Origin: Planctomycetota bacterium
Lineage (GTDB): Bacteria > Planctomycetota > UBA1135 > GCA-002748355
DNA length: 64,000 bases
Assembly: GCA_002748355.1 (NCBI GenBank)
Contig: PDSF01000029.1
Span: 110,262-174,261 of the forward strand
Direction: 5' to 3'
Position 1 is the first letter of the stretch. Each line of letters opens with the position of its first letter. The translations under genes were made by a program, and so were the position numbers. Positions 13,229 to 44,269 of this stretch are shown piece by piece. A model generated the notes under the pieces. It saw nothing but the letters and a program-made list of their open reading frames with translations, did no database searches and was not told the DNA's origin.

Positions 13229-13271
13229 GAGCTAGGGCAGGGGAAAAGGCGGCACAGGATAGCCCTGGCAG

Positions 13272-13730: not shown

Positions 13731-13732
13731 GC

Positions 13733-20277: not shown

Positions 20278-20517
20278 TTTGCGAGGATGGGAGGAGCTGG
20301 AAGAGATAGCTTAGGAGCAGATCAAGGATAGCCCCGGTCAGCTGGGCAAGAAGCAGCAGCCCCTCTCGCCCCAGGGAGAAAACACAGGCGAATCGACGGA
20401 TTCAGGATTCAACTAGGTCTTTCCGCCAAGGACGGTGCAGACGGTGTTGGCGCAGACGGTGCTTTGCTGCCGTAGGTCCACTTCAACGACCGGCTAGTGC
20501 CCACGCCCGTCATCTCA

Positions 20518-21069
20518 TCAGCCCTTTCCCGGGGACGACGAAGCACCCGGGTCCAATGGCTTCTCCTCGGCAGGAACCTGCTTGGTGATGACGCGGGTTG
20601 TGGGCACAGGCTCGCCCGTCTTCGGGTCCGGCTCAAACATGCCAGGCTGCAGGATGGTGCGGGCATGATCCTCGTGCTCCCAGATCAGGTACCCGGTGCT
20701 CGGGTCACGAAAGCGCCGCACCAAGAGGGCTGGATGCCCCCCCATCACCTCGGGGGGGCAAGGTCCCACGCCATCCGGATCGGGAACCTGAGACTCTGCC
20801 ACCGGGCGCAGCTCTCGCCAAAGTTCCTTCTCCTCGTCACTAGGAAGGAAAGGATCCAGCTGTCGCTGCATGGCCTCACGCTGGGCGAGGGCTTCCCCGA
20901 TGACGGTGCGCGCCGCCGAACGAACGTTGGGGGCCGGAAGCCTAGGCGAGGATTCCGGGGGACGATCTTTGCCCTCCAAGGGCTCAGATTCGGAAAGAAA
21001 GAACCAGGCCGCACTACTAAGGCCCAGGAGCAGAACCAAGATCAGCAGGACTCGCACCAGATCCCCCAC
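20518..21069 (-). CDS. hypothetical N-terminally anchored protein
   Basis: 183-aa ORF with a single N-terminal TM (VRVLLILVLLLGLSSAAWFFL). No domain recognised. Confidence 0.45.
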   Translation of the reverse strand: MGDLVRVLLILVLLLGLSSAAWFFLSESEPLEGKDRPPESSPRLPAPNVRSAARTVIGEALAQREAMQRQLDPFLPSDEEKELWRELRPVAESQVPDPDGVGPCPPEVMGGHPALLVRRFRDPSTGYLIWEHEDHARTILQPGMFEPDPKTGEPVPTTRVITKQVPAEEKPLDPGASSSPGKG

Positions 21070-21169
21070 GCTGAAGAGTCATTCAAAAGCGTCAGGGGCC
21101 CCTGATTCGAGGCCCCTTCGCCCTACGCTGCTGTATCGCAATCGTTCGAAGCGGGTCGCGCGGATCGAA

Positions 21170-22603
21170 TCAATAGTTCCAGCGATATACGAAGGTCGTC
21201 GGCTTCGCATGCTTACCGCGGACGCGCCACTCGGTACCGCCAGGATTTGTCCTTTCACGGACGGCGGTGCGCTCGTTGACCAGGAAGGTGCGCAGCTTAT
21301 GAGTCAACCGGTATTCATCAACCTCGAGCACGCCTGGGCCATCGTTGCGGAGGAACAAGGAAAGCGGAATACCAACAGCAGGACGCTGGATTTTGTGCGC
21401 CACCTTTGCGGTAGCCTTGCCTTGGGTCCACGCCGTCTGCTTCGCAAGCTTGGGGTCATAAAAGAAGCGCATCGTCGCCGCGGTCGAGAACCGAGCCCGC
21501 GCACTCTTGGCGTTAAAGACCAGCGCCTGTGCACTCCAGCAGGGGAAGCTGGCGACTAGAGGGCGGACGGCCTTGGGGATCGTCAAGGTAAAGGTCGCCA
21601 CCCCCTTCGCATCCAGTGGTGCCGAAAAAGGAAGAGCGCCGAGCGAGGAGAACAGCGGGTCAGCCCCAGGGTTAAGCCAGAATTCGCCAAAGGGGGTCGC
21701 GATCCCCTTGTTCAGCATCGCCATCGAACTGAACAGGAAGGCGACACTACCTGCGTTCTGGGCCCCGGCCTGAACCTGCCAAACAAGGTTGTCCTCGCGC
21801 TTCACCTGTTGCTTGCCGACATTGTTTACGTCGGGATCAAAGCCGCCGTACCCATAATTCGGGTTGGAGCAGGTTCCGTTATACACGGCATTCTCGACGC
21901 CTGTATTCAGAGTCACCTCATCCCAGCCCATATCGAAACGCCACGAGCGATGCAGGTCGGAAAAGGTGTTATTGAGGCCTGAACTCTGGGCAAGCTTGTT
22001 ACCCGGAATGATCGCCGTCCCTTCGACTCGATTCATCTCACGGTGATAAGAGCGCGAGGATGCCGTATAGCACTGCGGGGTGTTCGCACTGTTCGGCAAG
22101 CCAGTATCCGCCTGGGACATGTGCAGACTTATGCCGTCCTTCGACCAATTCGTCTTCGTCTTCAGATGCCAAGCAAAGATCAGCCGGCCTCTCGGAACTG
22201 CGATCTTCACAGCGTTGGCGGGAGCAGTAAGAGTGTGGGTGATCGCCCAGGCCCCCACCCCTGTGCCGACGCTCAGTCGGTTGTTGGCAACGATGACCTT
22301 ACCCCCAGCATAATCGGGGTTACCGGAGCCTTTTGGATCCAAACTGGTCCATAGGAAATCCCACGGCTCGACGGTAGCCATATTTTGATCCTGCACCAGG
22401 TAAGACGCAGAAGTCAGGGTCTTCGCACCGGCTATCGCGCCGAAGGGGACGGCTTGCGAGATATACCCGGCATTGGAGCCAACATTGGCCCGCGAGGTGT
22501 ACTCTGTCGTCTGATCCCAGATGCTACGTTTGTTTGAACTCAAAGTCTGGGCAGATGCGCTAGCAACGATCGCCGCGACGGCGAGAGCGAGAGAGGTTTT
22601 CAT
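21170..22603 (-). CDS. secreted protein of unknown function (N/S/T/G-rich)
   Basis: I chose the start at ATG 22603 (MKTSLALAVAAIVASASAQT, a clear signal peptide, with GGAG about 15 nt upstream) rather than the track start at 22753. The C-terminus has alternating aromatics (TFVYRWNY). G+C is lower than the flanks. Confidence 0.6.
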   Translation of the reverse strand: MKTSLALAVAAIVASASAQTLSSNKRSIWDQTTEYTSRANVGSNAGYISQAVPFGAIAGAKTLTSASYLVQDQNMATVEPWDFLWTSLDPKGSGNPDYAGGKVIVANNRLSVGTGVGAWAITHTLTAPANAVKIAVPRGRLIFAWHLKTKTNWSKDGISLHMSQADTGLPNSANTPQCYTASSRSYHREMNRVEGTAIIPGNKLAQSSGLNNTFSDLHRSWRFDMGWDEVTLNTGVENAVYNGTCSNPNYGYGGFDPDVNNVGKQQVKREDNLVWQVQAGAQNAGSVAFLFSSMAMLNKGIATPFGEFWLNPGADPLFSSLGALPFSAPLDAKGVATFTLTIPKAVRPLVASFPCWSAQALVFNAKSARARFSTAATMRFFYDPKLAKQTAWTQGKATAKVAHKIQRPAVGIPLSLFLRNDGPGVLEVDEYRLTHKLRTFLVNERTAVRERTNPGGTEWRVRGKHAKPTTFVYRWNY

Positions 22604-22618
22604 AGAAGGCAAGACTCC

Positions 22619-22658
22619 AAGAAGAAGAGAGAAGAAGAGAAAGAGGAGAAAGAAAGAA
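22619..22658. repeat. 40-nt uninterrupted polypurine (plus strand) / polypyrimidine tract with a 17-nt mirror repeat
   Basis: aagaagaagagagaagaagagaaagaggagaaagaaagaa. The segment gaagaagagagaagaag (22621-22637) is mirror-symmetric. The tract lies 16-55 nt upstream of ATG 22603 on the coding (minus) strand. Confidence 0.9.
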
Positions 22659-22998
22659 TCGCGATTCGCAGCAAGCGCCAGAAAAACAGGCTGCTGGGAC
22701 TGCGCGCCCGGCCACCGCAAATCACGCCCATCGGCCCAGCACCGGCCGCTCACCAGACGTCTTCACCGAACTCGTCTTCGCGATGCTATGGAACTCCGGT
22801 GGCTGGAGAGGCCCTAGCCGACTTCGGCACAGGGAAAAACGGCTCACGCGGCCAAGGCCACGTGAGCCAGAAGAGTCTGGCATCATTCCTGACCGGCAGG
22901 AATCAGGCAAGCCCCCCAGATCTGGGAAACGGGAGAGGCTCCACAAGTAGCCCCCGAAGCCCCCCCTTTCTCCTGCACGCCCCCGGCCTCAAACGCGA

Positions 22999-23032
22999 GC
23001 CGCCCTGGACACACAGCCGCCCTGGACACACA
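22999..23032. repeat. 17-bp perfect tandem duplication
   Basis: gccgccctggacacaca occurs twice. The second copy can pair with the downstream ccagggcg (cgccctgg/ccagggcg). Confidence 0.9.
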
Positions 23033-23076
23033 AGGTGGCCCAGGGCGACGATCTATCGCACCGAAGCTTCGGCGCG

Positions 23077-23110
23077 AGCGTGGTGCGGATCTAAGCGTGG
23101 TGCGGATCTA
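23077..23110. repeat. 17-bp perfect tandem duplication abutting and resembling the tRNA-Leu 3' end
   Basis: agcgtggtgcggatcta occurs twice, followed by gctgtggtgccgagga, which is the tRNA 3' terminus on this strand. The 12-bp palindrome ccgaagcttcgg lies at 23061-23072. Confidence 0.85.
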
Positions 23111-23114
23111 GCTG

Positions 23115-23203
23115 TGGTGCCGAGGACAGGATTTGAACCTGCACGCTCAATAAAGAGCACCAGCCCCTCAAGCTGGCGTGTCTGCCAATTTCACCACCTC
23201 GGC
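23115..23203 (-). tRNA. tRNA-Leu (anticodon GAG), class II, CCA encoded
   Basis: The reverse complement folds as follows. Acceptor GCCGAGG/CCTCGGC. Anticodon stem CCAGC/GCTGG with loop TTGAGGG. Variable arm GCTC-TTTATT-GAGC. T arm GCAGG-TTCAAAT-CCTGT. Discriminator A followed by CCA. Confidence 0.9.
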
Positions 23204-23371
23204 CGGCAGTGCCCCCATAGCTCGTCGCATTGGAGGGGCGGGAAGGCTAGCGAGGCCGGAAGGGGCCCGCAAGCGCGGGCTCGGCTTCGAACCGAGTTTT
23301 TCCCCCTCACCTAGGCCATCGCAAGCAGCGAAAGGCAGCGCGCAGTCGCCTTCGGCCACAAGGAGCCAGGC

Positions 23372-25432
23372 TCAGTAGCGCAGGAAGGCTCGCAGTTCAC
23401 ACTCGACCCTGCGCGGCTCGCTCCGAATCAACAGATAGGCGGCGTCGAGGAACTCGAGGTAGCGCTGCATGTCTTCGAACTCGCTCACCATCTGCTGCCC
23501 CCGCCCTTGCCCCTCGCTCTGCCAGCGCACGCCCAGCACGTCCGAGACACGCTTCTCGAAAGCTTCGCGATCGGCACCTCGGAGTTCGAACTTGCTCGCG
23601 GCCTTGCGCTTGAACTCCTGCTCGAAGATCCGGCGCTCCACCGCTGGTCGGTTGACGATCATCCAATTGGGATCGGGCTCATTGCTCCGAACCGCATCGA
23701 GGGCGAACTGAAGGTAACGCGAAAGGATGCCGCGAACATTCTCCCCCTCGACCCAGGCAAAACCGGAGAGCTTCTCGTTTTTCCCCATCCTCTGGATGTT
23801 CTCCAGTAGCCGCTCGTTCGTCCCGATCGAGCGGGCGCCCTTCTCGTTGAAATAACTGCGAACGCACTCCTGCAGGAGCTTGCCCGAGTTACTCAGCATC
23901 AGCAGATCTCCAAGCTGCGATCCTCCCTCCAGAATCGCGATCTGCCCGGTCCCGGGGATATTCGTGCTCGGCCACTCGTCGATGCGAACAGCGCCACCCG
24001 GCCCGGTGTTGATCTCGTATTGGCTCTGGAAGCCAAAACGCCGGTAGTTCTTACGCAGCAGCCCCAGCACCTGATCGATGCGCTCTTGCTCGCGCTTGCG
24101 GACTTCGACAACCCAAGCGACGGCTGGAGCCGGGCTGGGAATCTTGACCTCGTATTCCGTCTGGAACTTCGGGTAATCGTTATTGCGGATAATCACCAGA
24201 ACGTAGGGCTTAAGGCCCCGGGCAAAGCTCTCGATCAGGCCTCGCACACCACCGCGTTGCCCCGATCGGCGCAGCCCTTCGTCGATTAGGTCGCGCGCGT
24301 CCTTCTCCAAGCTGGCCACGAACTCTTCCAAGAAGAGCTGGACAGGTAGGCGCAGCATGAGAAAGCCCGCAGCCGTCGAGGGAATGCAACGGAGCTTCGG
24401 ACGCAACCAGCGATTCACATCTCCTGGCTGCGTCGAATAGAAGCTCGTCTGCTGCGGCGTCAGCTCGTTGCGATTCATATCGATGGTCAGCAGCGCCGAA
24501 ATCGAATCCTCGTTGAAATCGATCGCCCCCCACAGAGCGCGCATCGCCTTGGTCTGCACAAAGGAGCCCAGCAGCTTGCTCTCCTGACTCAGATCCGGCC
24601 CCTCACCTGGCCAGGCGGCAAAGGCAGGGAAGTCCCGCGCCAGCCGGGTCAAATCGAGGTTGAGTTCGACCGCATTGGCTCTGAATCCTTGTCGCTCAGC
24701 AAAGGCATCGAGCTGGCCCAAGACCAAATCCTGGTAGTCGGGCGAGACCTGCAGCGTGTCCTTAGCCAGCTCGCCAGCGGCCAGCGCCCGGGACTCTGCG
24801 ACAAAGTCCTTGTCGTTGCCCAGGATGATCAAATCAAGGACACGGGCCATCCAGAGCACCGGAGCTCCGGGCGGCTGCAGCTGAACCAAGTCCCCATCGA
24901 GGGACAGTGCCAGCCCCTGATTCGCCATCTTTTCGCGCACCAAGCTGTAGCCGAGCAAGTTGTAGAACGAGCAGATTTTCCAAGAGACCCGAGCGTAGCT
25001 GGCCCAAGTCGGAGGCTGCCCGGAGCCGCGCAAGCGGCCGGCAATCGCAAGATCCTCCCCCAGGACATCGCCCAAGATCGTCACATTGAGCAAGGGGATC
25101 TCGGCCAGCTGATCCTGGACCCGCTCCAATTCCTCCAGCGCCTGGCCGAGCCCGGCCTGGTTGAGGGCATAGCTATGGAGCTTGGAGCGGCGCAGCTGCA
25201 CATACGCCGGCCCGCTCTCGAATCGCGACCAGAACTGTGGCTCTGGAAACTTGGTGAAGTCTCCTGCCAGCCCTCGCTTCCCCAGATAAAAATCGACGGT
25301 CCGCGGGATGCCCGTCCGGATATCGACAACCGAGCCCTCGAAGACGTTGTAGACAAAGGCCGTAAAGGCCAAGGAACCGAACACGGCGAGGCTCACCAGT
25401 CCGATGCCGGTGTATTTGAGGATCTTTTTCAT
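23372..25432 (-). CDS. large N-terminally anchored protein of unknown function
   Basis: 686-aa ORF with an N-terminal TM (IGLVSLAVFGSLAFTAFVYNVF). The rest is predicted soluble. No motif recognised. Confidence 0.6.
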   Translation of the reverse strand: MKKILKYTGIGLVSLAVFGSLAFTAFVYNVFEGSVVDIRTGIPRTVDFYLGKRGLAGDFTKFPEPQFWSRFESGPAYVQLRRSKLHSYALNQAGLGQALEELERVQDQLAEIPLLNVTILGDVLGEDLAIAGRLRGSGQPPTWASYARVSWKICSFYNLLGYSLVREKMANQGLALSLDGDLVQLQPPGAPVLWMARVLDLIILGNDKDFVAESRALAAGELAKDTLQVSPDYQDLVLGQLDAFAERQGFRANAVELNLDLTRLARDFPAFAAWPGEGPDLSQESKLLGSFVQTKAMRALWGAIDFNEDSISALLTIDMNRNELTPQQTSFYSTQPGDVNRWLRPKLRCIPSTAAGFLMLRLPVQLFLEEFVASLEKDARDLIDEGLRRSGQRGGVRGLIESFARGLKPYVLVIIRNNDYPKFQTEYEVKIPSPAPAVAWVVEVRKREQERIDQVLGLLRKNYRRFGFQSQYEINTGPGGAVRIDEWPSTNIPGTGQIAILEGGSQLGDLLMLSNSGKLLQECVRSYFNEKGARSIGTNERLLENIQRMGKNEKLSGFAWVEGENVRGILSRYLQFALDAVRSNEPDPNWMIVNRPAVERRIFEQEFKRKAASKFELRGADREAFEKRVSDVLGVRWQSEGQGRGQQMVSEFEDMQRYLEFLDAAYLLIRSEPRRVECELRAFLRY

Positions 25433-27895: not shown

Positions 27896-29245
27896 TCACA
27901 GCCGGTAGGCGTTCTGCGCCCCCGGCAACGCCGCACAGGCACAATCCCGTAAGAAAGCCCGCTCCTTCGCGTCCACCGCCGTCGTCAGCACGTAGACCTT
28001 CCACAGCCGCAGGTATCCCTCTTCCAAATCCTGGATCCCGGGATGCTCGGCCTTGAAGCTGGATAAGGGCTGCAGCCCCTCCCCCGCCGGATGCCGCACC
28101 AGGGTGTCGACCTCCTTCAGCTGCATCTTCCGATTCGGGCAGTACAGGATCACCTGCTCCTTCCGGCCGAACTCACGCTCGAACTCCACCTCGCGCTCCC
28201 ACTCCCAGCTTCGCCGACCCTCCTGATTCGAAGGAGCAAAGAACTCGCGCACGAAGTCGTCCTGCTTCTCGCGGTTGAGTGCATAAGGAAAGACCGCCAC
28301 CCGCTTAATCAGACGTCGGCTCCCGAGCCGCTGCAGGAGCTCGCGCACCCGCCTGGCCTCCTCGCCCGAGAGTTCGCCAACGATCCGCTCAAGCCGCAGC
28401 ACCATGCCATCGTCCGTGAGGTGGTACAAATCCTTCGGCTCGATCCAACGCGACAGAAGCGCGGTCTCAACCGCCCGCGCGATCATTGCGCCAGCAGCGA
28501 TCTTGGCGTGGTGGTAGTACACCCGCTCACTGAAGAAGTACCGCGCCTGCAGCATGCGCAGCACCTCGGAAACGATGTCTTCGCGCAGCAGCCCCTTCTT
28601 CTCGCAATCGATGTAGAGCCGTTCGAGCTTGGGATCGATGCGGAAGTAATCGACGATGCGCAGGTCGTAGCGCAGGTCCAGCCCGGTGAAGTATGCGTCC
28701 CGCCGCAAGTAGTCCATCAAATCGCTGCAGATGCTGTCGCTGACCATCTGCGACAGAAACGGCGGGCGCTGCGTCGGCTTCGCTCCCAAGACGCCCAGGA
28801 CATCCTCAAGCAGCCCCTGGCGCTGCAGCTCCGCCCCGAGCTCGCGAGCAGGATCGAGCATAGAGAGATACCTCTCCGCACGATCGTGTCTCGGCAACAA
28901 GCCCGTTTGATCTTCGATGTTGTGCCCAAAGGGGATGTGCGTGACATCGTGCACCAGGGCTGCCGCTCGAATGATCCGGGCCTCCTCCTCGTCGACCCCG
29001 CGGCTGAGCTCGGGGCTCATCGCCGCGGTGCGACGCACGGCATCGATCAAGAGCTGACTCATGTGCAAGGTGCCGATCGAATGCTCGAAGCGACTGTGCC
29101 GAGCTCCGGGAAAGACCAGATGCACCAGGCCAAGCTGGCGAACACCGCGAAGGCGCTGCATTTCCCGGGTATCAATGATCCGGCCCTCGTCCGGACTGAG
29201 GTAGATATCGCCGTGAACGGCGTCTCGGATCACGAATCGCTGCAT
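27896..29245 (-). CDS. HD-domain phosphohydrolase (dNTP triphosphohydrolase/SAMHD1-like, COG1078-type)
   Basis: 449-aa ORF with RFEHSIGTLH and AALVHDVTHIPFGH (the H...HD...D metal motif). Confidence 0.8.
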   Translation of the reverse strand: MQRFVIRDAVHGDIYLSPDEGRIIDTREMQRLRGVRQLGLVHLVFPGARHSRFEHSIGTLHMSQLLIDAVRRTAAMSPELSRGVDEEEARIIRAAALVHDVTHIPFGHNIEDQTGLLPRHDRAERYLSMLDPARELGAELQRQGLLEDVLGVLGAKPTQRPPFLSQMVSDSICSDLMDYLRRDAYFTGLDLRYDLRIVDYFRIDPKLERLYIDCEKKGLLREDIVSEVLRMLQARYFFSERVYYHHAKIAAGAMIARAVETALLSRWIEPKDLYHLTDDGMVLRLERIVGELSGEEARRVRELLQRLGSRRLIKRVAVFPYALNREKQDDFVREFFAPSNQEGRRSWEWEREVEFEREFGRKEQVILYCPNRKMQLKEVDTLVRHPAGEGLQPLSSFKAEHPGIQDLEEGYLRLWKVYVLTTAVDAKERAFLRDCACAALPGAQNAYRL

Positions 29246-29335
29246 CCCGCGGACGATATCACCGCCGGCGCCAAGTCACGAAACGTTCCAAGATCTCTCC
29301 GGAGCTACGATCGGCAAGTTGGGCTTCGATTTCGA
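29242..29335. repeat. left copy of a 94-bp perfect direct repeat
   Basis: Identical base for base to 32394-32487. Contains the HD gene start codon (29243-29245) and a stranded copy of the last 25 codons plus stop of the 142-aa gene. Confidence 0.95.
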
Positions 29336-29431
29336 ACCGAAAAGCCCCCAGTGCCCCCTACTTATCAGCCACCTTGCTCGTGCCGACAAAGGATCGACAG
29401 ATCGGGTACAAAGCGCAGCCCCGACCGTCGG

Positions 29432-30604
29432 TCAGTCACGATTTCGACGGGCGAGCAGACTTCTCACCCATTCCGCACGGTGTTTGTGCATCGACTCAAG
29501 CGTGTTTTCCCCTGCCATCTTCCGAAGAGCAAGCATGACATCTGCACGAGCTTCCGGCGTACGGAACGACTGCACAACCTGGGCTAACGACTCGGCATCG
29601 CCCCTCTTGTAGAGCACACGCTTATCCACGCCGAGCTTCTGGTAGGGGGCGGAATCGGGGCAAATCGGGACGAGGCCCTGGGAAATCGCATCGAAGATGA
29701 TCCGCGGCTGCTCCACGTTGAGATTGGTGATGAGCAAGATGTCGTGGCGCGAGATCGCATGGAAAAACGGGCCGGGGTAGGGATACGTGCCACCAAACCG
29801 CACGGCTTCGGCAAGCCCGGCCTGCTTGGCTCGCTGAATAAGAGCCGGCTTTTCTGCACCTTCTCCGAAAATCTCCAACTGCGCGCCCGGAAGACCAGGG
29901 GAGGCGTGATCGTGAAGCCAGCGCAGTGCATCGATCGCCAGATGAACCCCCTTCATCGGTTCAAGACGCGCCGCCACACAAAGGCTGAGGGAGCCTGAGC
30001 TGGCTGCCAGCTTCTCTTTCAGTTGCACCTCGCCGATAAGCTCATTTTCGGTAATCCAACTTGCCGTGCAGACGTATACCTCAGCGTCCACTTGCCCAAG
30101 CATCTCCACCAACCCGTAGCCCGTTAGAAACACCCCATCTACGGCATGAGCAAGACTCTGCACGGCATGAGTCATCCGAGAAGCCTGATGGCGCGCCCTG
30201 ATCCTCCTGAGCAGGGATTGCCCCTCAGCATTCATGATCGTGGTCGCCGCGCGATTGCTGCTCACCCCCAAAATGGAGCAGAGACCAGCCGCCCGTGCCG
30301 CCTTCACAAAGGTCATCGCCGGCGACGAGAACAACCCGGGCTCCGGGCCAACTTGGACCACATCGTGCTCGCGGACCAGCCGCTGTAGAGCCTCAGCGTC
30401 CAGCCTGTCACGATCCACGACCTCGACCCCAGTCGGCAAGGGGGTGGAATCACCTTGCGCCGGTCCCTGCCTTGCCAGAAGGGTGACTCCATCAACTACC
30501 GCACACTGGCCTTTCAGGTCCCGCGCCCACAGATCGAGGGTCTCAAGCCCACTCGCCCCCTCATGGACAGGGATCGGCGAAAGAAGAAGGAGTCGGTAAC
30601 TCAT
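29432..30604 (-). CDS. glycosyltransferase family 4 (GT-B fold)
   Basis: 390-aa ORF with typical GT4 layout. The C-terminal nucleotide-sugar-binding region is diverged (LLITNLNVEQPRIIFDAISQGLVPIC). Lies inside the repeat-bounded islet. Confidence 0.7.
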   Translation of the reverse strand: MSYRLLLLSPIPVHEGASGLETLDLWARDLKGQCAVVDGVTLLARQGPAQGDSTPLPTGVEVVDRDRLDAEALQRLVREHDVVQVGPEPGLFSSPAMTFVKAARAAGLCSILGVSSNRAATTIMNAEGQSLLRRIRARHQASRMTHAVQSLAHAVDGVFLTGYGLVEMLGQVDAEVYVCTASWITENELIGEVQLKEKLAASSGSLSLCVAARLEPMKGVHLAIDALRWLHDHASPGLPGAQLEIFGEGAEKPALIQRAKQAGLAEAVRFGGTYPYPGPFFHAISRHDILLITNLNVEQPRIIFDAISQGLVPICPDSAPYQKLGVDKRVLYKRGDAESLAQVVQSFRTPEARADVMLALRKMAGENTLESMHKHRAEWVRSLLARRNRD

Positions 30605-31133
30605 GCGCCCCAGCCTAACGGCTGCCCCCCAGGTAAGTCACGAAACCGCCCCCTCGCCAACTCGTGCAAACTTAGCCTAAGGAAGGCCATCGGCGCCTTG
30701 GTTTCCCCGACCCGCAATAGCCTCAATTCGGCGAGGGCGATCACTGACGGAATAAACGCCTAGAACGTAAGCGTCCGACGGTCGATTTGGAGGGCCATGG
30801 ATTTCGTCCCAGCTCGCTACCAGCCTATCCAGGAGGAACGCCTTCGATCCGAAGAACCGTCCGAGTAGCAGACCTGCCCTCGCCCGCCTGTATGCCGAAG
30901 CCCCTGATGAGCAGCGACGACGTGGCATCAGGTATCCAAGACCTTTTTTACTACACTGGAAAAAGCAACAGGTCCACAATATCGTGTCTCCCTCCGAGGA
31001 GGTACCCGAGGAGGCAAGGAGCTACCCACCATCATAATATCGCAATGCAAACCACCATCCCTGGCCGTATAAATCACAGCCAGGCCACAGACACCGAAGC
31101 ACTAAAGACACACCCCAACAGGTCAAACATATA

Positions 31134-32087
31134 ATGGATCAAGAAGGACATCTTAGCCTGGAGGAACTGCGCAGAGAGCTTAGAGGACCCTTGGAAGCCG
31201 CTCTATCTATAGATCCAAATACAATATGTCTCGACCTCCTATGCGAGCCAAAAGACATCGTTACCGATGACACTCAAAAACTAATCATAAGAGACAACCA
31301 TGGCCGCAACCTAGCTGTCTCCTTAGTCGCCTCCCCAGTCGCCCCCGACCTCGTAGGGAGAGGCATGCATATCGCAAAAGAAGCCAAAAAATTACTCGGG
31401 GACCCTTTAGGTAACGTCATCCTCACCCCCTTGGGAGAAGGGAAGGTCTGCGGCCGCGATTACACCATTCTCCCCTTTTGCCCACCAATGGGCGGAGGGA
31501 GAATTATGCGTCCCCTTTGGAAGATCTGGGCCCGACCAAAGGTAATAAAATGGCTGCTCCAAATCACTGACCACACAGCAACCCGCATTGCCCCTTCGGA
31601 CATACCAACTGCCTTTGAAGCGCCACTAGACTTCCTAGCGACCTCCTCAGCGCTAAGCGCTCAGCTGCGGAGTGCAGCGGAGCTATCACTCGCACGACTA
31701 CGAGCCGGTGAAATAGCCCCACGCTCTACACTCATGCATGGCGACCTGTGGGAAGGCAACATACTCCGCCCCCCATCTCCGGCCTTAGGTAGAATAAGAG
31801 CCCCATTTATATTGATCGACTGGCCCGGAGCGATGTTGCAGGGCTACCCTTTTTACGACCTCATACGAATCGCGGAGTCCATGAACTTCAGCGCACGCGC
31901 TCTGCGTCGAGAGATTTTGAAGCACACTAAGGTGCTCGGAATCGATGCCAGGGACGCCGAAGCCCATCTTTTATCGTCCCTAGGACATATCGGACTCAAC
32001 CGAGGAGGATTCCCGCTGGAACGGTACGCGGAACTGAGCCTAAGGTGTTTCACCAGATTCCAACATGCCCTGAACCCAGAGTTCTAA
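31134..32087 (+). CDS. APH/ChoK-family phosphotransferase (small-molecule or sugar kinase)
   Basis: 317-aa ORF. Brenner-type catalytic motif LMHGDLWEGNIL, followed by FILIDWPGA and FYDLIRI. Visibly AT-richer codon usage and no Shine-Dalgarno sequence upstream. Confidence 0.65.
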   Translation: MDQEGHLSLEELRRELRGPLEAALSIDPNTICLDLLCEPKDIVTDDTQKLIIRDNHGRNLAVSLVASPVAPDLVGRGMHIAKEAKKLLGDPLGNVILTPLGEGKVCGRDYTILPFCPPMGGGRIMRPLWKIWARPKVIKWLLQITDHTATRIAPSDIPTAFEAPLDFLATSSALSAQLRSAAELSLARLRAGEIAPRSTLMHGDLWEGNILRPPSPALGRIRAPFILIDWPGAMLQGYPFYDLIRIAESMNFSARALRREILKHTKVLGIDARDAEAHLLSSLGHIGLNRGGFPLERYAELSLRCFTRFQHALNPEF

Positions 32088-32393
32088 TCGAAAACGAAGA
32101 CCGGACCACCCGGGCAAATCCGCCCAGCCACCGCAATGAGCAGTTAGTCAAACGTTAAGGGTCGATCGAGGTTGCCGCACAGCGGAAGCCTTCGGCCTTC
32201 GCCCCCCACTAACAGGTCTTTGAAATATCTGTAGCACAAAAGCTAGATCACTCAGACGGACAACCGGTCTTATCAGGCTGCTGAAAAGGTCCTGTCTAGA
32301 TCTCAAGCCTGCATCGACAGCCTGAGATAACTCATCCCTGCTGTCGGCGAGCTACAGGCTTGTCTTCGTTTTCAAGGAACAACGAAGACTCGG

Positions 32394-32487
32394 GCATCCC
32401 GCGGACGATATCACCGCCGGCGCCAAGTCACGAAACGTTCCAAGATCTCTCCGGAGCTACGATCGGCAAGTTGGGCTTCGATTTCGA
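32394..32487. repeat. right copy of the 94-bp perfect direct repeat
   Basis: Identical to 29242-29335. Here it forms the genuine 3' end of the 142-aa gene and carries a decoy copy of the HD start codon (32395-32397). Confidence 0.95.
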
Positions 32488-32839
32488 GCACGCCGCTGTC
32501 GAGGCGAATCACCGAATACTGAACGCGAAGGTGCTCGTAGCCATCAAGGTGGCTGGCCCCGGTCTCGGCCCGGGCGACGGGCCCGATCTCTCCGAGGGCT
32601 ACAGGAGAAACGGCCTGCGTTAGCAGTGTGCTCATGACCGGGCGAGTCGTCCCGAACTGCATCAGGCCAAGTTTCTTGGCGAAGTAAGGACCAGCAAGGC
32701 CAGCGGTCACGCTCAGGATGGCGAGCAGCAGCGAGAGCAAACTGGCAGGAGCACGACGAGTCAGGACGACAGGGCGAATAGAAGGAGCTTTCCCCTTGGG
32801 GCCGGCACTCAACGGCACTCTCGCTCTCTTTCGCTCCAT
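32411..32839 (-). CDS. hypothetical single-pass membrane protein
   Basis: 142-aa ORF with basic N-terminus followed by a TM (LLSLLLAILSVTAGLAGPYF). Its last 25 codons lie in the 94-bp repeat. Downstream of elbB on the same strand. Confidence 0.45.
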   Translation of the reverse strand: MERKRARVPLSAGPKGKAPSIRPVVLTRRAPASLLSLLLAILSVTAGLAGPYFAKKLGLMQFGTTRPVMSTLLTQAVSPVALGEIGPVARAETGASHLDGYEHLRVQYSVIRLDSGVLEIEAQLADRSSGEILERFVTWRRR

Positions 32840-33007: not shown

Positions 33008-33664
33008 TCAAGCAAGCATCCCCATCAACGCATCGATCGCCTTGCGAATCCCCCGCTCGACCTCCTTGATGCCAGTGCCGACCATGTAGGCCGGTGTCGA
33101 GACGATGCGGTTCTTCTCATCCACGACAACTTCCTCGGCTGAGCAGTTCTGGTGCTCACAGCCGAGCGCCTCCAGCGCCTTGGCCGTGCCTTCGTCCGTG
33201 CCGATCGTCAGCTTGGGCCCCTTATCGCCCAGCACCTTGGCCAGGACAGCCGGAGCAATGCAAATAGCTGCAATGGGCTTGTTCTGCGCGTGCATGTCCA
33301 AGAGGAGCTTGGCGAGCCCGGGATGCACCTCGCAGTCCACGCCAGCGCTAGCGAAGTTCGACAGGTTCTTCGCCGCGCCAAAGCCTCCTGGCAGCACCAG
33401 GGCATCGAGATCCTCGGCCTTCGCCTCCCCGAGTTCCGAGATTTCACCCCGCGCGAGACGCGAAGCTTCGGTGAGAACGTTGCGCTTCTCCCCGCTCGCC
33501 TCAGCGCTCCGGTGATCGACGACATCGAAGTCGATATCCGGGGCAAAGCAGCGGATATCAGCACCCGCTTGCTCAAGCACCAAGAGGGCACAAACGGACT
33601 CGTAGATCTCGGCACCATCGAGGTAGCCACATCCAGACAATACGACGCCGACCTTTTTGCTCAT
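33008..33664 (-). CDS. elbB: isoprenoid biosynthesis glyoxalase ElbB (DJ-1/PfpI superfamily)
   Basis: Collinear with E. coli ElbB as I recall it: KKVGVVLSGCGYLDGAEIYE, LVLPGGFGAAKNLSNFA, ICIAPAVL, STPAYM. I prefer the start at MSKKVGVV (33664); the track start at 33688 is possible. Confidence 0.88.
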   Translation of the reverse strand: MSKKVGVVLSGCGYLDGAEIYESVCALLVLEQAGADIRCFAPDIDFDVVDHRSAEASGEKRNVLTEASRLARGEISELGEAKAEDLDALVLPGGFGAAKNLSNFASAGVDCEVHPGLAKLLLDMHAQNKPIAAICIAPAVLAKVLGDKGPKLTIGTDEGTAKALEALGCEHQNCSAEEVVVDEKNRIVSTPAYMVGTGIKEVERGIRKAIDALMGMLA

Positions 33665-33715
33665 CTCGTCTCGCTCCTTCATCTTCACGTGAGGAGGACG
33701 AGGATAACCGGGGAA

Positions 33716-35600: not shown

Positions 35601-38279
35601 TTGCGCAGCTCTTGCCACCTATTGTTATTCGCGGCCTCCTTGGCCAGCCCCGCCTTCGCCCAGGGCGCCAGTCCCACCGAGGCATGGAATCGCTTTCTCG
35701 CCGAGCATGGCCCCCGCTGGACCGCGGAGTGGAGCCCGGCAACTGGCACCCCCAAGGCGATCTACGGCCAGGGCTTCCAGCTCAAGGCCGGCCGCATCGA
35801 GAGCATTGAGGAGGCAAGGGTCTATGCCCGGCAAACCCTGAACCGCTACTCAGATCTCCTCGGCCAGGGGGCTTCGGTCTTCGAAGAGCAGCTCGCCAAC
35901 AAGACCCACCGTCTCTACAGCTTCGTCTATCGCCAAAGCTTCCGCGGCCTCGAGGTCATCGGCGGGCGGGCTGACCTGCGCATCCACGAGAACGGCGGAC
36001 TCTCGCTCCTCGGCTCCGAAGCCTTCCCGGTACCCGATAGCTTCTCGATCGAGCCCAGCATCCCGCAGAGCCAAGCTCGGCTGACAGCAGAGCAGATCCA
36101 CGATCTGCCGCAGGCAAAGCCCGGCAACAAGGATCGCCTCGTGATCTGGGCCGACTGGCAAGCCAAGCAGGCGAGCCCGATTCGCCTGGCCTGGGAGATC
36201 GACATCGACCACAGGGACTCCGAAACCGTCGGCAAGAGCTATATCGATGCGCTCACCGGCGATGAGCTCAGCTACCGCAACGACTGGCACGAGTGCGGCT
36301 TCTGCCTCTGTCAGGCATCACCTGTGCTAGAGGCATCGCTGGCCGGCCCTAGGGCCCCACTGCCTGCGCAGCTGATCCTCGGCAACCCCTTCCAGGGCCC
36401 ACAGGCTGCCACCGTTACCGGCAAGGTCATGGCATGGGTCAACACCGGCAATCGCGCTATCGACGCGCCTAAGAACGTACCGCTGCGCAACGTTCTCGTT
36501 CGCGTCCAGGGTGGCGGCCAAGCGTATACCGATGCCTCCGGCAACTTTTCGATCTCCCACAGCGGCAGCAGTGCCGTCCCAGTCATCGTGGAGTTCAAGG
36601 GCCGGCGTATCGCCGTGGTTACCACCGCGCAGGGCAGCAATCTCTATTCGAAGGTCACGCTTACGCCAGGCACACCGACGACGATCCAGATTTACACCCA
36701 GCAGGTCGCAGAGTTTGATCTCGCCCAGGCGAACATCTATTGGGGCGTCGATGACATCAATGAGTGGATGCGCAGCAAAATCGGCCAGCTACCGAGCGCA
36801 ACGGACCGTATCACCGGGCGGGCGAACCTGACCAGAACCTGCAACGCGTATTACACCCGTAACACGATCAACTTCTTCAACGCCGGTTCCACCTGTAACA
36901 ACACCGCATTCTCAAGCGTGATTTATCACGAGTGGGGGCACGGACTCGACGACCGTTACGGTGGCATTTCGCAGACCGACGGTCTCTCTGAGGGATGGGC
37001 CGACATCATCGCCCAATATCGAACAGACAACCCCATCCTCGGAGAGTATTTCCGCAAGAATGGGGGCTATGTACGCACGGCGCTCAATACTCTGACTTAT
37101 CCTGCCGGAGGATCGGTCCACAAGCAGGGCAGCACTTGGATGGGATTTGCCTGGGACCTGCGAAAAAATCTGATCGCAACATACGGCAAGGCGAAGGGGA
37201 CGCAGATCGCCGAGAAGATCGTGCTCACGACTATCGCCAGCAATGCCCGCAACCAACCCAGCGCGGTGCGAGAAGTCTTCCTCGCCGATGACGATGACAG
37301 CAATCTCAACAACGGCACGCCGAACTACAAGGACCTCGAAAAGGCGGCACGAAAACGCCGACTTCCGTATCCGGTGAAGCTCAGCCAAAACCCTGGCACC
37401 TGGCAGGCTTTCGGAGCCGGCTGCCTCGGCACCGGCCAGCAATCTGGCACCTGCGTCCGCGTCAACGACACGGCAAGAAACCGTGGGCTACGCTCGCGTT
37501 CCAACCTGACCTACGCCCTGCGGATCAAAGCTCCAAAGCCGCTCGCGCTGAAGGGCTTCGAACTGAACACGAGTTCACGCAGTTCCGGCACGGTCACGCG
37601 AAACATCGCGGTATATTCCGCCGATGCCGCTGGTCGCCCGAATCAGATCCTCGGCACCGGGACCATGCAAATCGGCAGAACCCTGGGCTGGTACCAAGCC
37701 AAGCTGAAGTCTCCGGTACTGATCAAACAGAACCAGACCTTCTTCATCGCCTTCATCAATCAAAGCACGCCGATCCTCTGCTCGATTATGACCAGCGGCA
37801 CCAGGGTCGCCTACTTCCGTAATGACGGCCCCAACAGCTCGTGGAACGGCCCACGCACGATGTATCCGTGGGCGTATCGCCTCAAGTGCAGCACGGCGAG
37901 CAAGGTGGCCCCAACCTTGACGAATAAGGGCGTCCCTGAACTTGGCAAGAGTTTCGACCTCGAACTCGGACTCGCCTCCGCCAATGCCCCGGCAGTCCTC
38001 TTCTTGGGTAGCTCCAACAAGTATCTCGGCAGCCTAAAGCTCCCCTTCGACCTAAGCTCAGCCGGCATGAGCGGCTGCAAGCTCTACACCTCGACCGATA
38101 TCCTCCTCCCCCTGAACGCGAACGCCTCAGGCACAGCTTCGATCAACATCAAGATCCCGAGCTGGCCCGGCCTCGAAAACAACCTGTTCTATAGCCAGGT
38201 CCTCGTCCTGGACTCAAAGGCCAATGCACGTGGCCTCGTCCTGACCAACGCGGGCAGCTCAAAGATCGGCAAGGAGTAG
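35601..38279 (+). CDS. secreted zinc metalloprotease, fungalysin (M36)/thermolysin-clan-like, with a long C-terminal extension
   Basis: 892-aa ORF with a TTG start and signal peptide LLLFAASLASPAFAQG. HEXXH site SSVIYHEWGHGLDD, followed by LSEGWADIIA (the M36-like GEGWSD position). The last ~330 aa have no recognised domain. Confidence 0.7.
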   Translation: MRSSCHLLLFAASLASPAFAQGASPTEAWNRFLAEHGPRWTAEWSPATGTPKAIYGQGFQLKAGRIESIEEARVYARQTLNRYSDLLGQGASVFEEQLANKTHRLYSFVYRQSFRGLEVIGGRADLRIHENGGLSLLGSEAFPVPDSFSIEPSIPQSQARLTAEQIHDLPQAKPGNKDRLVIWADWQAKQASPIRLAWEIDIDHRDSETVGKSYIDALTGDELSYRNDWHECGFCLCQASPVLEASLAGPRAPLPAQLILGNPFQGPQAATVTGKVMAWVNTGNRAIDAPKNVPLRNVLVRVQGGGQAYTDASGNFSISHSGSSAVPVIVEFKGRRIAVVTTAQGSNLYSKVTLTPGTPTTIQIYTQQVAEFDLAQANIYWGVDDINEWMRSKIGQLPSATDRITGRANLTRTCNAYYTRNTINFFNAGSTCNNTAFSSVIYHEWGHGLDDRYGGISQTDGLSEGWADIIAQYRTDNPILGEYFRKNGGYVRTALNTLTYPAGGSVHKQGSTWMGFAWDLRKNLIATYGKAKGTQIAEKIVLTTIASNARNQPSAVREVFLADDDDSNLNNGTPNYKDLEKAARKRRLPYPVKLSQNPGTWQAFGAGCLGTGQQSGTCVRVNDTARNRGLRSRSNLTYALRIKAPKPLALKGFELNTSSRSSGTVTRNIAVYSADAAGRPNQILGTGTMQIGRTLGWYQAKLKSPVLIKQNQTFFIAFINQSTPILCSIMTSGTRVAYFRNDGPNSSWNGPRTMYPWAYRLKCSTASKVAPTLTNKGVPELGKSFDLELGLASANAPAVLFLGSSNKYLGSLKLPFDLSSAGMSGCKLYTSTDILLPLNANASGTASINIKIPSWPGLENNLFYSQVLVLDSKANARGLVLTNAGSSKIGKE

Positions 38280-39592: not shown

Positions 39593-40741
39593 GTGTCTGA
39601 TTCCCGCGTGCGAGTCGCCATCGACTACCGCCCGGCACTCTTCTCCCGAAGCGGCATCTCCCGCAGCGTACGCGAGCTGGTCCGGGCCCTCTCCCAATGC
39701 AGCCAGGACAGCGAGCTGGTGCTCTTCGCCCACGCATGGAAGCGAGCCCTCGACCCAAACTGGCGCGAAGGGCTGGCCGAGACCGTCCATGTCGCCCGCA
39801 GTCGGCTACCGGGCCGGGTCCAACCCTGGCTGGCGCGCCTAGGCCTCGATGCCCGCCGACTGGCCAAAGGCGCCGACATCTTCCACATCACCGACTTTGT
39901 GCAGCCGCCCCTAGGGCGAAGCGCGCGGGTGGTCATGACCGTGCACGACCTCGCCTTCCACGCCGACCCGCGCTTTCACGGGGCCAGCCAAAGCCTGCGC
40001 CTCGCTCGCCGCCTCGAGCGGCTCCTTCGCCACGACCCGCTGCTGGTCTTCCCGAGCAGGGCTAGCCGCGACGCCTTCGTCGCCCAATACGGGACAAAGC
40101 AGCGCCTGCAGGTCATCCCCTTCGGCAGCGACCACGCACGGCGCCAGGGCACCGATCCCGAGCGCGGCCGCCGCCTGGCCCAGCGCCTCCTCGGCAGTGA
40201 GGAGCCCTTCGTGCTTTGCCTGGGAACCATCGAGCCGCGAAAGAACCATGATGTGCTCCTGCATGCGCACGAGACCCTGGCCGAGCGCGGCAGGCCGCTG
40301 CCCCTCCTCGTGGTCGGCGCTCCGGGCTGGGAATGCGATGCGGTGCAGCATCGCCTTGCCCGGGGGCAGGAACGCTTCCCCCTCCACTGGGCCAGCACCC
40401 TCGAGGACGCGGACTGCTTCGACCTGCTCGCAGCCGCCCGAGTCCTCGCCTACCCCTCAAGCCTCGAAGGTTTTGGCTTCCCCCCCCTGGAAGGCCTCGA
40501 ACTCGGCACCCCCTGCGTCGTCGGCGACTGCCCCGCCCTCAGAGAACAGCTGGGCGAAGCCGCCTGCTTCGTGCCCCCCCGGGACCATGAGTCCCTCGCG
40601 GAGCAGCTCCTCCGCTGCTACTCGCGGGAGGAGCTGCGCCGTGAGCAGCTCGCCGCCTGGGAGGCTCGGCACAAGCAGCGCAGCTGGCAGCGCTGCGCAG
40701 AGAGATACCTCGAAGCCTACCGCGAAGCCGCAAGCGACTGA
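39593..40741 (+). CDS. glycosyltransferase family 4
   Basis: 382-aa ORF with the GT4 C-terminal EX7E region YPSSLEGFGFPPLEGLELGTPCVVGD. Confidence 0.8.
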   Translation: MSDSRVRVAIDYRPALFSRSGISRSVRELVRALSQCSQDSELVLFAHAWKRALDPNWREGLAETVHVARSRLPGRVQPWLARLGLDARRLAKGADIFHITDFVQPPLGRSARVVMTVHDLAFHADPRFHGASQSLRLARRLERLLRHDPLLVFPSRASRDAFVAQYGTKQRLQVIPFGSDHARRQGTDPERGRRLAQRLLGSEEPFVLCLGTIEPRKNHDVLLHAHETLAERGRPLPLLVVGAPGWECDAVQHRLARGQERFPLHWASTLEDADCFDLLAAARVLAYPSSLEGFGFPPLEGLELGTPCVVGDCPALREQLGEAACFVPPRDHESLAEQLLRCYSREELRREQLAAWEARHKQRSWQRCAERYLEAYREAASD

Positions 40742-40788
40742 TTGCAGCTTCGCATTCCCAGCCGAGCCTCCGCACAATAGCCAAAGCC

Positions 40789-43675: not shown

Positions 43676-44269
43676 TCAACTCGCAAGCTTGAAGGCCAAG
43701 TAGGCGAGGCCGGCGCCGATTCCCAGGACGAGGAGGAAGAACCCGACGCGCTGCAGAGGGCCGCGCTGCGCCAGATCATCGGCATAGAACCCTCCCCGCT
43801 TGGGCTGGCTGTAGCGCAGCACCCCCGAGGGCAAACGGTGCGGGTCATCCTTCCCCGATAGCGGCGTCACCACCGCCGAATCGAGGCTCGGGCCCTCCTT
43901 CGCAGCCACGCGCGCAGGCGCCACACGAGGTTCCACCAACGGAGCCGCAGCCACGCTGGGCGCCGGCGCCTCGATACGCACCCGCAACTCGATCGGCCCC
44001 AGGGCAAAGACCGCCCCATCCTCCAGCCGAACCTTCTGCACCCGCTGCCCCTTGAGCTTGGTCCCATTGGCCGAGCCCAGGTCCTCCAGAAAGAGTTCAT
44101 CTCCCTGGCGAACAAGCCGAGCGTGTCTGCGCGAAACGCCCTGGTCATGCAAGGTGAGATCACATTCAGCAAGCCGCCCGATGCTCAACTCGTCTACGAC
44201 AACAGCTTCCTCACCAGCGGAGTTACCGGTCAGCACATACAGATTCACCCGAGGTTTGGACGGAGTCAT
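43676..44269 (-). CDS. FHA-domain protein with a C-terminal transmembrane anchor
   Basis: I chose the start at ATG 44269 (MTPSKPRVNLYV...). FHA core SIGRLAECDLTLHDQGVSRRHARLVRQGDELFLEDLGSANGTKLKG. C-terminal TM FFLLVLGIGAGLAYLAF. Confidence 0.75.
   Translation of the reverse strand: MTPSKPRVNLYVLTGNSAGEEAVVVDELSIGRLAECDLTLHDQGVSRRHARLVRQGDELFLEDLGSANGTKLKGQRVQKVRLEDGAVFALGPIELRVRIEAPAPSVAAAPLVEPRVAPARVAAKEGPSLDSAVVTPLSGKDDPHRLPSGVLRYSQPKRGGFYADDLAQRGPLQRVGFFLLVLGIGAGLAYLAFKLAS

Follow-up and report, generated by a model that had tools for sequence, protein, structure and literature searches.

The split junction and its flanking genes

The window, the whole 64-kb stretch of DNA that was analysed, contains an elbB-tm142-HD gene series in which an islet separates tm142 from the HD gene. 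On either side, the islet is bounded by a copy of one direct repeat, here called J, which spans the end of tm142 and the start of HD. The features, in window coordinates, are as follows.

9652-10752: dprA
27896-29245, minus strand: HD-domain phosphohydrolase, dGTPase-like (PIE23917.1), with HD and HD_assoc_2 domains
29242-29335, no strand: left copy of J; minus-strand content: orphan 3' fragment of tm142 (24 2/3 codons and the stop codon), 13-nt spacer, functional HD ATG
29336-32393, no strand: inserted islet, 3058 nt
29432-30604, minus strand: GT4-family glycosyltransferase, 390 aa (PIE23918.1), Pfam Glycos_transf_1
30605-31133, no strand: GT4/kinase divergent intergenic region, 529 nt, presumed to hold the promoters of both genes
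30677-30979, minus strand, and 30787-31134, plus strand: orphan ORFs in the 529-nt region
31134-32087, plus strand: kinase, 317 aa, choline-kinase/APH-like fold, HGDLWEGN and IDW motifs
32088-32393, no strand: non-coding islet tail, 306 nt, adjoining the right copy of J
32332-32397, minus strand: decoy ORF, 21 codons
32394-32487, no strand: right copy of J; functional tm142 3' end with its stop codon, 13-nt spacer, decoy HD start codon
32411-32839, minus strand: tm142, small membrane-anchored protein without known family, its 3' end inside the right copy of J
33008-33688, minus strand: elbB (DJ-1/PfpI glyoxalase), upstream of tm142; NCBIfam ElbB, 300 bits

The first-pass annotation claimed a perfect 94-bp direct repeat here, and the two copies are indeed identical at 94/94 positions, with 3152 nt from start to start. 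Read on the minus strand, J encodes EIEAQLADRSSGEILERFVTWRRR (24 2/3 codons) and a stop codon, followed by the spacer TATCGTCCGCGGG (13 nt) and by ATGC; translation confirms the proposed content of tm142 tail and stop, 13-nt spacer and HD ATG. J is native host sequence, its encoded tail matching the tails of tm142 orthologues. Might it instead be a dispersed repeat unrelated to this junction? A search of the window that allowed up to 3 mismatches finds just two copies, both at the junction (0 in 100 shuffles), and J is the sole dispersed perfect repeat of at least 30 nt in the whole 64 kb.

Both neighbours were said to stay whole only through the duplication of the junction, and this is borne out: tm142 is intact because the right copy of J supplies its 3' end, and HD because its start codon, together with 91 nt of native upstream sequence, lies within the left copy. 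The decoy HD start codon in the right copy opens a 21-codon ORF, as described, which encodes MPESSLFLENEDKPVARRQQG and a stop. In this arrangement, tm142 transcription would now enter the islet, and the GT4 promoter would probably drive HD, whose native 5' leader is retained.

Cargo and composition of the islet

The islet is a self-contained, divergently transcribed module of a GT4 glycosyltransferase and a choline-kinase/APH-like kinase. The GT4 gene, upstream of HD and on the same strand, was called correctly from the letters: its product matches Pfam Glycos_transf_1 with 37.4 bits (cut-off 26.4). Its best homologues are 56-62% identical and have neighbourhoods of polysaccharide type; the host GT4 cluster at 39593-42983 is unrelated to it.

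The plus-strand kinase carries the HGDLWEGN...IDW motif attributed to it, and its public annotation covers just the last 84 aa (PIE23919.1). Against Pfam APH (PF01636) it scores 19.8 bits, below the cut-off of 23.2, and in a PDB profile search it reaches E ~0.5 at best; several of its homologues have a precomputed PF01636 match. The AF2 model (pLDDT 91.9) finds choline kinase, FN3K, APH and LicA as top Foldseek matches (probability 1.0), and the predicted structure is a bilobal kinase fold in which a metal-binding Asp lies downstream of the HxDxxxxN catalytic loop. Across 19 homologues, residues H202, D204, N209 and D229 do not vary.

What might these two genes do together? The initial reading as an envelope-glycan modification cassette stands in part: homologues of the GT4 protein and of the kinase both sit in polysaccharide/GT gene clusters, but separately, and in no other locus examined was the pair found travelling together. 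A glycan-modification role for the islet genes is plausible from such neighbourhoods.

The non-coding gaps of the islet measure 96, 529 and 306 nt, the two larger ones agreeing with early estimates of about 530 and about 300 nt. In the 529-nt region there is neither an Rfam match nor a sigma-70-like site; the orphan 100-aa ORF noticed earlier (30677-30979) is indeed present and matches no family. In the islet tail, a perfect 12-nt inverted repeat (32090-32101/32362-32373) closes a structured segment (z = -3.28), and folding agrees with the 9-bp-stem hairpin reported at 32362-32389, 4 nt from J; terminator-like sites in the tail are weak on both strands and not above chance.

With a GC of 0.570, the islet is the lowest of all 3-kb stretches in the window (mean 0.634, sd 0.023). 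The first-pass annotation described a sharp drop in composition, and its hand counts are exact (58/120 G+C at 31141-31260; 40/60 at 39601-39660), but the drop is concentrated in the kinase half, from which the deficit chiefly comes (GC 0.54, GC3 0.55). The GT4 gene is mildly atypical (GC 0.60, GC3 0.67, against GC3 of 0.72-0.88 in the flanking genes except tm142).

Empty sites in related genomes

Relatives had been predicted to have an uninterrupted junction, in which J is single and 13 nt separate the stop codon of tm142 from the HD ATG. Exactly this is seen in L173, the closest relative found, whose HD protein is 90% identical: elbB, tm142, 13 nt, HD. The single J orthologue (L173:9526-9619) aligns to both copies in the window, so to say from either side: window 38280-32394 aligns to L173 3683-9619, and window 29335-23002 to L173 9526-15823. 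In L169 (HD protein 81% identical) the gene order is the same and the site empty, with a tm142-HD spacer of 26 nt; in L001 the tm gene and HD are adjacent. The elbB-tm142-HD order is thus kept in L173 and L169, and in all three a tm142 orthologue immediately precedes HD. Neither the GT4 nor the kinase gene occurs within 21 kb around the site in L173 or L169. At about 75-79% nucleotide identity, these two are other species than the window, and their empty sites are not conspecific alleles; even so, the insertion is real, because two related genomes keep the junction uninterrupted. The picture that would speak against an insertion, with all relatives carrying the islet at host-like composition and none an empty site, is not what was found: L173 and L169 are empty and the islet composition is atypical.

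The slot between tm142 and HD has other contents elsewhere. No gene occupies it in L001, L169 or L173, while Alg14/Alg13-like genes are found there in L003 and, together with an MCP (chemoreceptor) gene, in L002 and L010. No mobility genes lie in the slot in these relatives and no repeats flank its other cargo; nothing thus points to an att site used repeatedly.

Between the window copies J is identical at 94/94 positions, while the orthologue matches at merely 75/94 (80%) and differs at 19/94; the duplication is therefore young and lineage-specific. Similarity to the relatives ends sharply at both ends of J, with none residual beyond. A foreign origin of the islet is supported, as it would fit the composition, the absence from relatives and the perfect repeat identity; plasmid, phage and viral collections gave no match to the islet.

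Could the junctions be an artefact of assembly? A Logan contig from run SRR6011892 (L161, 3118 nt) equals window 29306-32423 exactly, and so comprises the islet and, on either side, 30 nt of J. This independent k=31 assembly reproduces both islet/J junctions, which indicates that both are present in the reads; an excised circle plus an empty chromosome would, however, give the same k=31 graph as integration. On comparative evidence, then, an evidently foreign fragment of 3058 nt was inserted recently at the tm142-HD junction, and 94 bp of the target were duplicated.

Routes of insertion

How did the fragment enter? The islet was described as lacking an integrase, a transposase and terminal inverted repeats, and none was found in it or, for the repeats, at its ends. 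The two larger gaps (529 and 306 nt) have no Pfam match of any kind at E<=1 in any frame, recombinase domains and remnants included. Among 35 large ORFs of the 64-kb window scanned with Pfam, a set that leaves out seven ORFs of at least 200 aa (19411-25432 and 62592-63503) and p892 (35601-38279), there is no integrase or transposase, nor is there one in the gene lists of syntenic relatives for the left-out stretch. Neither kinship with a prophage, ICE or IME nor a remnant of an integrase, excisionase or relaxase emerged: the cargo is the GT4 and kinase genes only. A DDE transposon, an IS or a casposon was considered and rejected. As in transposon and casposon insertions, a duplicated target exactly flanks the insert; however, known prokaryotic duplications of this kind are about 2-15 bp long and are accompanied by terminal inverted repeats and a transposase or casposase, whereas here the duplication is 94 bp and neither was found.

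The account that we favour, with about as much confidence as doubt, is a recent horizontal insertion by host recombination or repair, without any element-encoded enzyme and with a 94-bp target duplication; dprA, in the same window, counts in favour of insertion by host machinery. Two routes can be envisaged: (a) the foreign fragment would have been joined de novo into a staggered break or, in a variant, brought in when replication switched template twice, at points 94 nt apart, with a long “target-site duplication” as the result in both cases; and (b) a single (Campbell-type) RecA crossover would have taken place between the chromosomal junction and a circular, J-bearing cassette from a conspecific cell. 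Route (b) needs a J-bearing circle beforehand and thus merely pushes the origin back. The likeness to Campbell-type integration is otherwise close: the insert lies between direct copies of a single unbroken stretch of host DNA that occurs once in the naive site; this stretch reaches from the end of one gene into the start of the next, leaving both whole; and homologous recombination can precisely reverse the event. Unlike the islet, which is natural, 3 kb long and devoid of a backbone, Campbell-type integrants are known mainly from the laboratory, or as plasmids and episomes that bring replication or vector functions. The insertion is known from a single instance in one MAG.

The geometry is also of the kind that tyrosine-integrase elements make, with an identity block running from a gene 3' end to a few nt beyond the stop. 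J would then be an attP/attB identity block at the tm142 3' end, and the islet a CIME- or IME-like remnant or satellite, since decayed to 3 kb, whose tyrosine recombinase was deleted or is encoded elsewhere in the genome; calling J an “attachment sequence”, as was done at first, presumes such site-specific recombination. We regard this as rather unlikely, yet as a serious rival. Direct repeats that start in, and hence restore, a gene 3' end are the classic geometry of integrase islands; 27% of the islet is non-coding with orphan ORFs, a possible sign of decay; and genome inspection covered 64 kb, so that a trans-acting integrase could be elsewhere. CIMEs, cis-mobilizable elements, by definition keep attL and attR after loss of integration and transfer genes (PMC5704250). 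Like the islet, they are small, have no such genes and lie between direct repeats containing the target gene 3' end; unlike it, they come from a recognisable ICE/IME family whose integrase moves them, whereas the search found no such family, integrase or remnant, and the islet repeat reproduces, at length and without a mismatch, host sequence of low conservation. This last point counts against the integrase scenario: the tm142 tail is only 80% identical at the nucleotide level to its closest orthologue, and a 94/94 attP/attB match would need an element that co-evolved with the lineage. The gaps are, moreover, too short for a recombinase, the scanned large ORFs hold no integrase, nothing similar extends beyond the J ends, the junction carries no repeat-flanked alternative cargo in relatives, and the viral, phage and plasmid collections were silent.

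Identity blocks of this length do exist: blocks of ~100 bp at tRNA genes are known in actinomycete integrative plasmids, with about 112 bp in Streptomyces SLP1. SLP1-type elements resemble the islet in this ~100-bp block overlapping a gene 3' end; in contrast, their targets are highly conserved tRNA genes and they encode int and xis, whereas the islet sits at a fast-evolving protein-gene tail and no integrase was found.

It is quite improbable that the chromosome is empty (tm142-J-HD), with the islet present only as a 3152-bp one-J circle or in a mixed population and the integrated path an assembler choice. The ambiguity of the k=31 graph would allow it, and either end of the Logan contig lies exactly 30 nt inside J; however, a 3.15-kb circle without a replication gene cannot persist, which means that the integrated, duplicated form exists or existed in the population, and J, with its 94 bp, falls below the usual length of Illumina reads or inserts and should normally be resolved by assemblers. 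Less probable still is an islet ancestral to the clade, with the empty sites of relatives as deletion scars: recombination between direct repeats would, logically, leave one J and look like a never-occupied site, but the J copies are identical even though the gene fragment in the left one has no function and the orthologous J differs at 19/94 positions, islet GC3 (0.55-0.67) is not ameliorated to that of the host (0.72-0.88), and the junction is tight in three relatives at different distances (L173, L169, L001).

The islet insertion is an unusual variant within known insertion types. Like a minimal mobile element or replaceable slot, the locus has variable content between conserved flanks (tm142 and HD) and no mobility genes; minimal mobile elements, however, are exchanged through recombination in the flanking genes and have no flanking duplication, in contrast to the 94 bp duplicated here. 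Under our favoured account of insertion by host recombination or repair, homologous recombination between the J copies could excise the islet precisely, giving an empty site and a J-bearing circle. An improbable extension makes the islet a recombinase-free mobile cassette, composed of cargo and a copy of the host junction, that would leave as a circle through RecA and spread among conspecifics by a single crossover at the junction; a bolder version may invoke a trans-acting enzyme of a novel type that cuts with a ~94-bp stagger. If the recombinase-free cassette is true, genes could spread, for example by transformation, with no element-encoded enzyme and with the flanking genes kept whole.

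The tm142-HD junction and its single-copy counterpart

Two copies of J, a 94-nt direct repeat, flank the islet, a 3058-nt insert (29336-32393) that separates tm142, the gene for a 142-aa membrane protein, from HD, the gene for an HD-domain phosphohydrolase; elbB lies upstream of tm142.

Features at the tm142-HD junction (window coordinates)
29242-29335: left copy of J, perfect direct repeat, 94 nt
32394-32487: right copy of J, perfect direct repeat, 94 nt
33688-33008, minus strand: elbB
32839-32411, minus strand: tm142
29245-27896, minus strand: HD phosphohydrolase

The copies, 3152 nt apart start to start, are the only two occurrences of J in the window at up to three mismatches (none in 100 shuffles), and J is the sole dispersed perfect repeat of at least 30 nt within the 64 kb. 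Read on the minus strand, J comprises the last 24 2/3 codons and the stop of tm142 (the product ends in …EIEAQLADRSSGEILERFVTWRRR), a 13-nt spacer, the HD ATG, and one more base. Comparison with orthologous tails reveals that J encodes the native tm142 tail, and thus both copies are host sequence; the left copy contains a functionless tm142 fragment, yet it is identical to the right one.

What does this locus look like without the islet? Exact-sequence look-ups of HD and tm142 returned no match, and searches of species-representative genomes and JGI metagenomes with the HD protein yielded no relative closer than 65%; two closer relatives, L169 and L173, came from a large protein collection, the latter (P0213) reached only via a 90% cluster listing. 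L169 (JGI 3300066527; HD 81% identical) is collinear with the window from ~38281 down to 22010 and has the order CarboxypepD_reg protein, elbB, tm149, a 26-nt spacer, HD; the glycosyltransferase (GT4) and kinase genes of the islet are both absent at this locus. The closest relative found, L173 (ENA ERZ25074695, contig ctg336149_4x_l, 49.7 kb; amino-acid identities of 90% for HD, 88% for the exonuclease, 85% for the aminotransferase, and 70% for tm142), has elbB, tm142 (142 aa), a 13-nt spacer, and HD. BLASTN aligns the window to L173 in two collinear blocks (window 38280-32394 with 3683-9619 of L173, and 29335-23002 with 9526-15823), which overlap at L173 9526-9619, i.e., over 94 nt. The empty site predicted by the first-pass annotation is thus found: a single J orthologue (75/94 positions identical, 19/94 different) aligns to both window copies. 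Relative to it, the window carries an insertion with an exact 94-bp target duplication.

More distant relatives fill the slot differently. L001 has tm156, 28 nt, then HD; L003 has Alg14- and Alg13-like transferase genes (3099-4150); L002 (7821-8761) and L010 (6089-7062) have such a pair plus a chemoreceptor gene. In this Planctomycetota clade, the interval between tm142 and HD thus ranges from a tight junction to Alg14/Alg13 genes to these plus a chemoreceptor; it is a slot of variable content that accommodates glycosyltransferase genes. The Alg14-/Alg13-like genes, named by eye from their translations, are of the split UDP-GlcNAc transferase type; the methyl-accepting chemotaxis gene of L002 and L010 is on the opposite strand. 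No flanking repeats are present in the other occupied slots (L003, L002, L010), and the 94-bp duplication is unique to the window among the slots compared. A recurrent attachment (att) site at the junction was considered and rejected, since relatives with other slot genes lack flanking repeats.

J is also rich in 6-bp palindromes: it has eight (CCGCGG, GATATC, GCCGGC, GGCGCC, AACGTT, AGATCT, TCCGGA, CGATCG) where ~1.6 are expected. At least eight are found in just 0.27% of 94-nt windows, at two places in the 64 kb besides the J copies, and the L173 orthologue retains two or three of them, as judged by eye. This excess could be due to chance or could mark a break-prone or restriction-site-rich target.

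Cargo genes and non-coding segments

The islet forms a self-contained unit of two divergent genes: a GT4 glycosyltransferase gene (29432-30604, minus strand) and a choline-kinase/APH-like kinase gene (31134-32087, plus strand), which share an upstream region of 529 nt. The GT4 protein (PIE23918.1, CSA62_05870; Planctomycetota MAG, 179-kb contig) exceeds the cut-off for Glycos_transf_1; the best of its homologues share 56-62% identity with it and neighbor methyltransferases, GT2 genes, EpsI, and carbamoyltransferase genes. A host GT4 cluster (39593-42983; three consecutive genes, GC3 0.74-0.83) lies ~7 kb from the islet; the islet GT4 has no detectable similarity to it and was rejected as its paralogue. 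The kinase scores 19.8 bits against Pfam APH, below the cut-off of 23.2; residues H202, D204, N209, and D229 are invariant in a 19-sequence alignment, the AlphaFold model is confident (pLDDT 91.9), and Foldseek groups it with choline kinase, fructosamine-3-kinase, APH enzymes, and LicA (probability 1.0). Public annotation PIE23919.1 (CSA62_05875) takes in no more than the C-terminal 84 aa of the kinase ORF, which is 317 aa long; the 19 homologues and the confident structure model support the full-length protein, and in practice most of the kinase gene is missing from the public record. PIE23920.1 likewise starts tm142 (32411-32839, minus strand) nine codons later, giving 133 aa.

Homologues of the kinase (at most 53% identical) recur beside GT2, a different GT4, and polysaccharide deacetylase; others sit within a Wzx/methyltransferase/sulfotransferase cluster. 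Since homologues of both cargo genes occupy polysaccharide-type neighborhoods, the pair may reasonably be expected to modify a surface or secreted glycan. PADLOC finds no defense-system match for the cargo. The two genes are neighbors in none of the other loci recovered and differ in composition; the islet has the look of a mosaic.

Scans of the islet for promoters and terminators did not rise above chance level, and the islet contains no Rfam families. Downstream of the kinase, a perfect 12-nt inverted repeat (32090-32101/32362-32373; GAAAACGAAGAC/GTCTTCGTTTTC) encloses a 284-nt non-coding segment; a segment within 32080-32400 folds better than shuffles (z = -3.28) and has no Rfam match. The 12-nt motif also forms a hairpin adjoining the right J copy. 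The finer details of the first-pass annotation proved exact: the 9-bp hairpin, the 21-codon decoy ORF, the orphan 100-aa ORF, the kinase motifs, and two hand G+C counts.

Possible routes of insertion

The islet ends lack terminal inverted repeats, and a Pfam search of all six frames of the 529- and 306-nt non-coding gaps gave no match at E ≤ 1 and no integrase remnant; the 96-nt gap, too short for a recombinase, was left out. The islet matches no plasmids or phages, and viral contigs contain neither J, nor GT4, nor the kinase family. A Pfam scan of 35 large window ORFs revealed neither an integrase nor a transposase; the scan left out seven ORFs of at least 200 aa (19411-25432, 62592-63503) and p892 (35601-38279), and the gene lists of syntenic relatives over the unscanned stretch hold no integrase. 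No island adjoins tRNA-Leu(GAG) (23115-23203, minus strand), whose region is 96% identical to L169, or tRNA-Ser(GCT) (2980-3071, plus strand), just downstream of which a 15-nt unit is repeated three times in tandem (3156-3215). A possible match of the islet start to HD codons 5-9 (10/14 nt, MAFFT) was put down to chance. Across 2.37 Mb of related loci, dispersed perfect repeats near 94 nt are absent, except for one 647-nt repeat in L012. There, perfect direct repeats of 647 and an adjacent 176 nt recur at the same spacing 12.8 kb apart (1-850 and 12798-13650), at the start of a long-read contig (1.67 Mb) from a different Planctomycetota MAG; possible origins are an IS copy, a duplication, and an effect of the assembly end.

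How, then, did the islet get in? Our preferred reading, which we consider about evenly balanced between right and wrong, is that host recombination or repair made the insertion, either de novo or via a J-bearing circle. Four observations argue for it: (i) J is a perfect copy of fast-evolving host sequence; (ii) similarity stops abruptly at both J ends; (iii) there is neither room for a recombinase nor a trace of one; and (iv) the site bears no sign of recurrent att use. De novo, a foreign fragment would be joined into a staggered break or, alternatively, two template switches would occur 94 nt apart; in the circle route, a single RecA crossover would integrate a circular cassette already bearing J, from a conspecific cell. 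The window also has a dprA gene (DNA_processg_A, 9652-10752); DprA mediates the recombination of single-stranded DNA entering the cell, and the presence of its gene at least fits with foreign DNA being taken up and recombined. In structure, the islet works like a Campbell-type insertion-duplication, and its slot behaves like a minimal mobile element (PMC3787668). By contrast, the islet belongs to no transposon or casposon family: inverted repeats and an enzyme are both lacking, and its duplication is far too long. Literature searches found nothing on Campbell-type islets and no comparable bacterial case among long target duplications.

The main alternative is that the islet could be a decayed or trans-mobilised site-specific element. 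An identity block that begins in the 3' end of a gene is typical integrase geometry, and blocks of ~100 bp occur in some actinomycete integrative plasmids. CIMEs are defined as elements that keep attL and attR after losing their integration genes (PMC5704250), but no relation of the islet to an ICE or IME was found, and we regard this origin as possible yet rather unlikely.

Is the islet part of the chromosome at all? Run SRR6011892, for which a literature search found no paper, has an independent Logan assembly (k=31); one of its contigs, 3118 nt long, is identical to window 29306-32423, which comprises all 3058 nt of the islet and exactly 30 nt (k-1) of J per side. Since this contig reproduces both islet/J junctions, both are present in the raw data. 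The assembly graph branches within J, as a true repeat would, a pattern that an empty chromosome and a separate circle bearing a single J would fit equally well. The islet lacks a replication gene, however, and such a circle could arise only by excision from an integrated form; a circle alone, or a mixed population, is improbable. The islet is real, it is a single case in one MAG, and it may have an ordinary explanation.

The islet has the lowest GC of any 3-kb stretch (0.570; window mean 0.634, sd 0.023), and GC3 is 0.55 in the kinase and 0.67 in GT4, as compared with 0.72-0.88 in flanking genes except tm142 (0.66). This atypical composition, the identity of the J copies against 19/94 differences from the orthologue, and the tight junction in three relatives point to a recent gain in the lineage of the window, leaving an ancestral islet lost elsewhere as a very remote prospect.

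Consequences of the insertion

Both neighbors survive the insertion: tm142 retains its own 3' end and HD retains 91 nt of native leader, with 3 kb now between them. GT4 reads in the same direction as HD and ends 186 nt before it, and HD is therefore probably transcribed from the GT4 promoter. Repeat-mediated deletion between direct repeats is well established, and with two 94-bp copies 3 kb apart the islet should be precisely excisable in a RecA-dependent manner.

Elsewhere in the window, genes for McsA-like (UVR motif), McsB-like (ATP:guanido phosphotransferase), and ClpC-type AAA+ chaperone proteins stand in a row (4993-9596); the arrangement of a protein-arginine kinase with Clp is best known from Firmicutes. 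Tandem 300-nt copies (44034-44333 and 44395-44694; 74% identical, 361 nt apart) adjoin or overlap an FHA-domain gene (43676-44320).

The islet represents a natural, empty-site-verified gene gain with no visible mobility gene, and its 94-bp target duplication far exceeds any that a transposase is known to make. Should host recombination or repair by itself be able to insert a two-gene module ready for expression, keeping both neighbors and leaving the module precisely excisable, this would be one possible route for the turnover of surface-glycan genes in lineages with few classical mobile elements.
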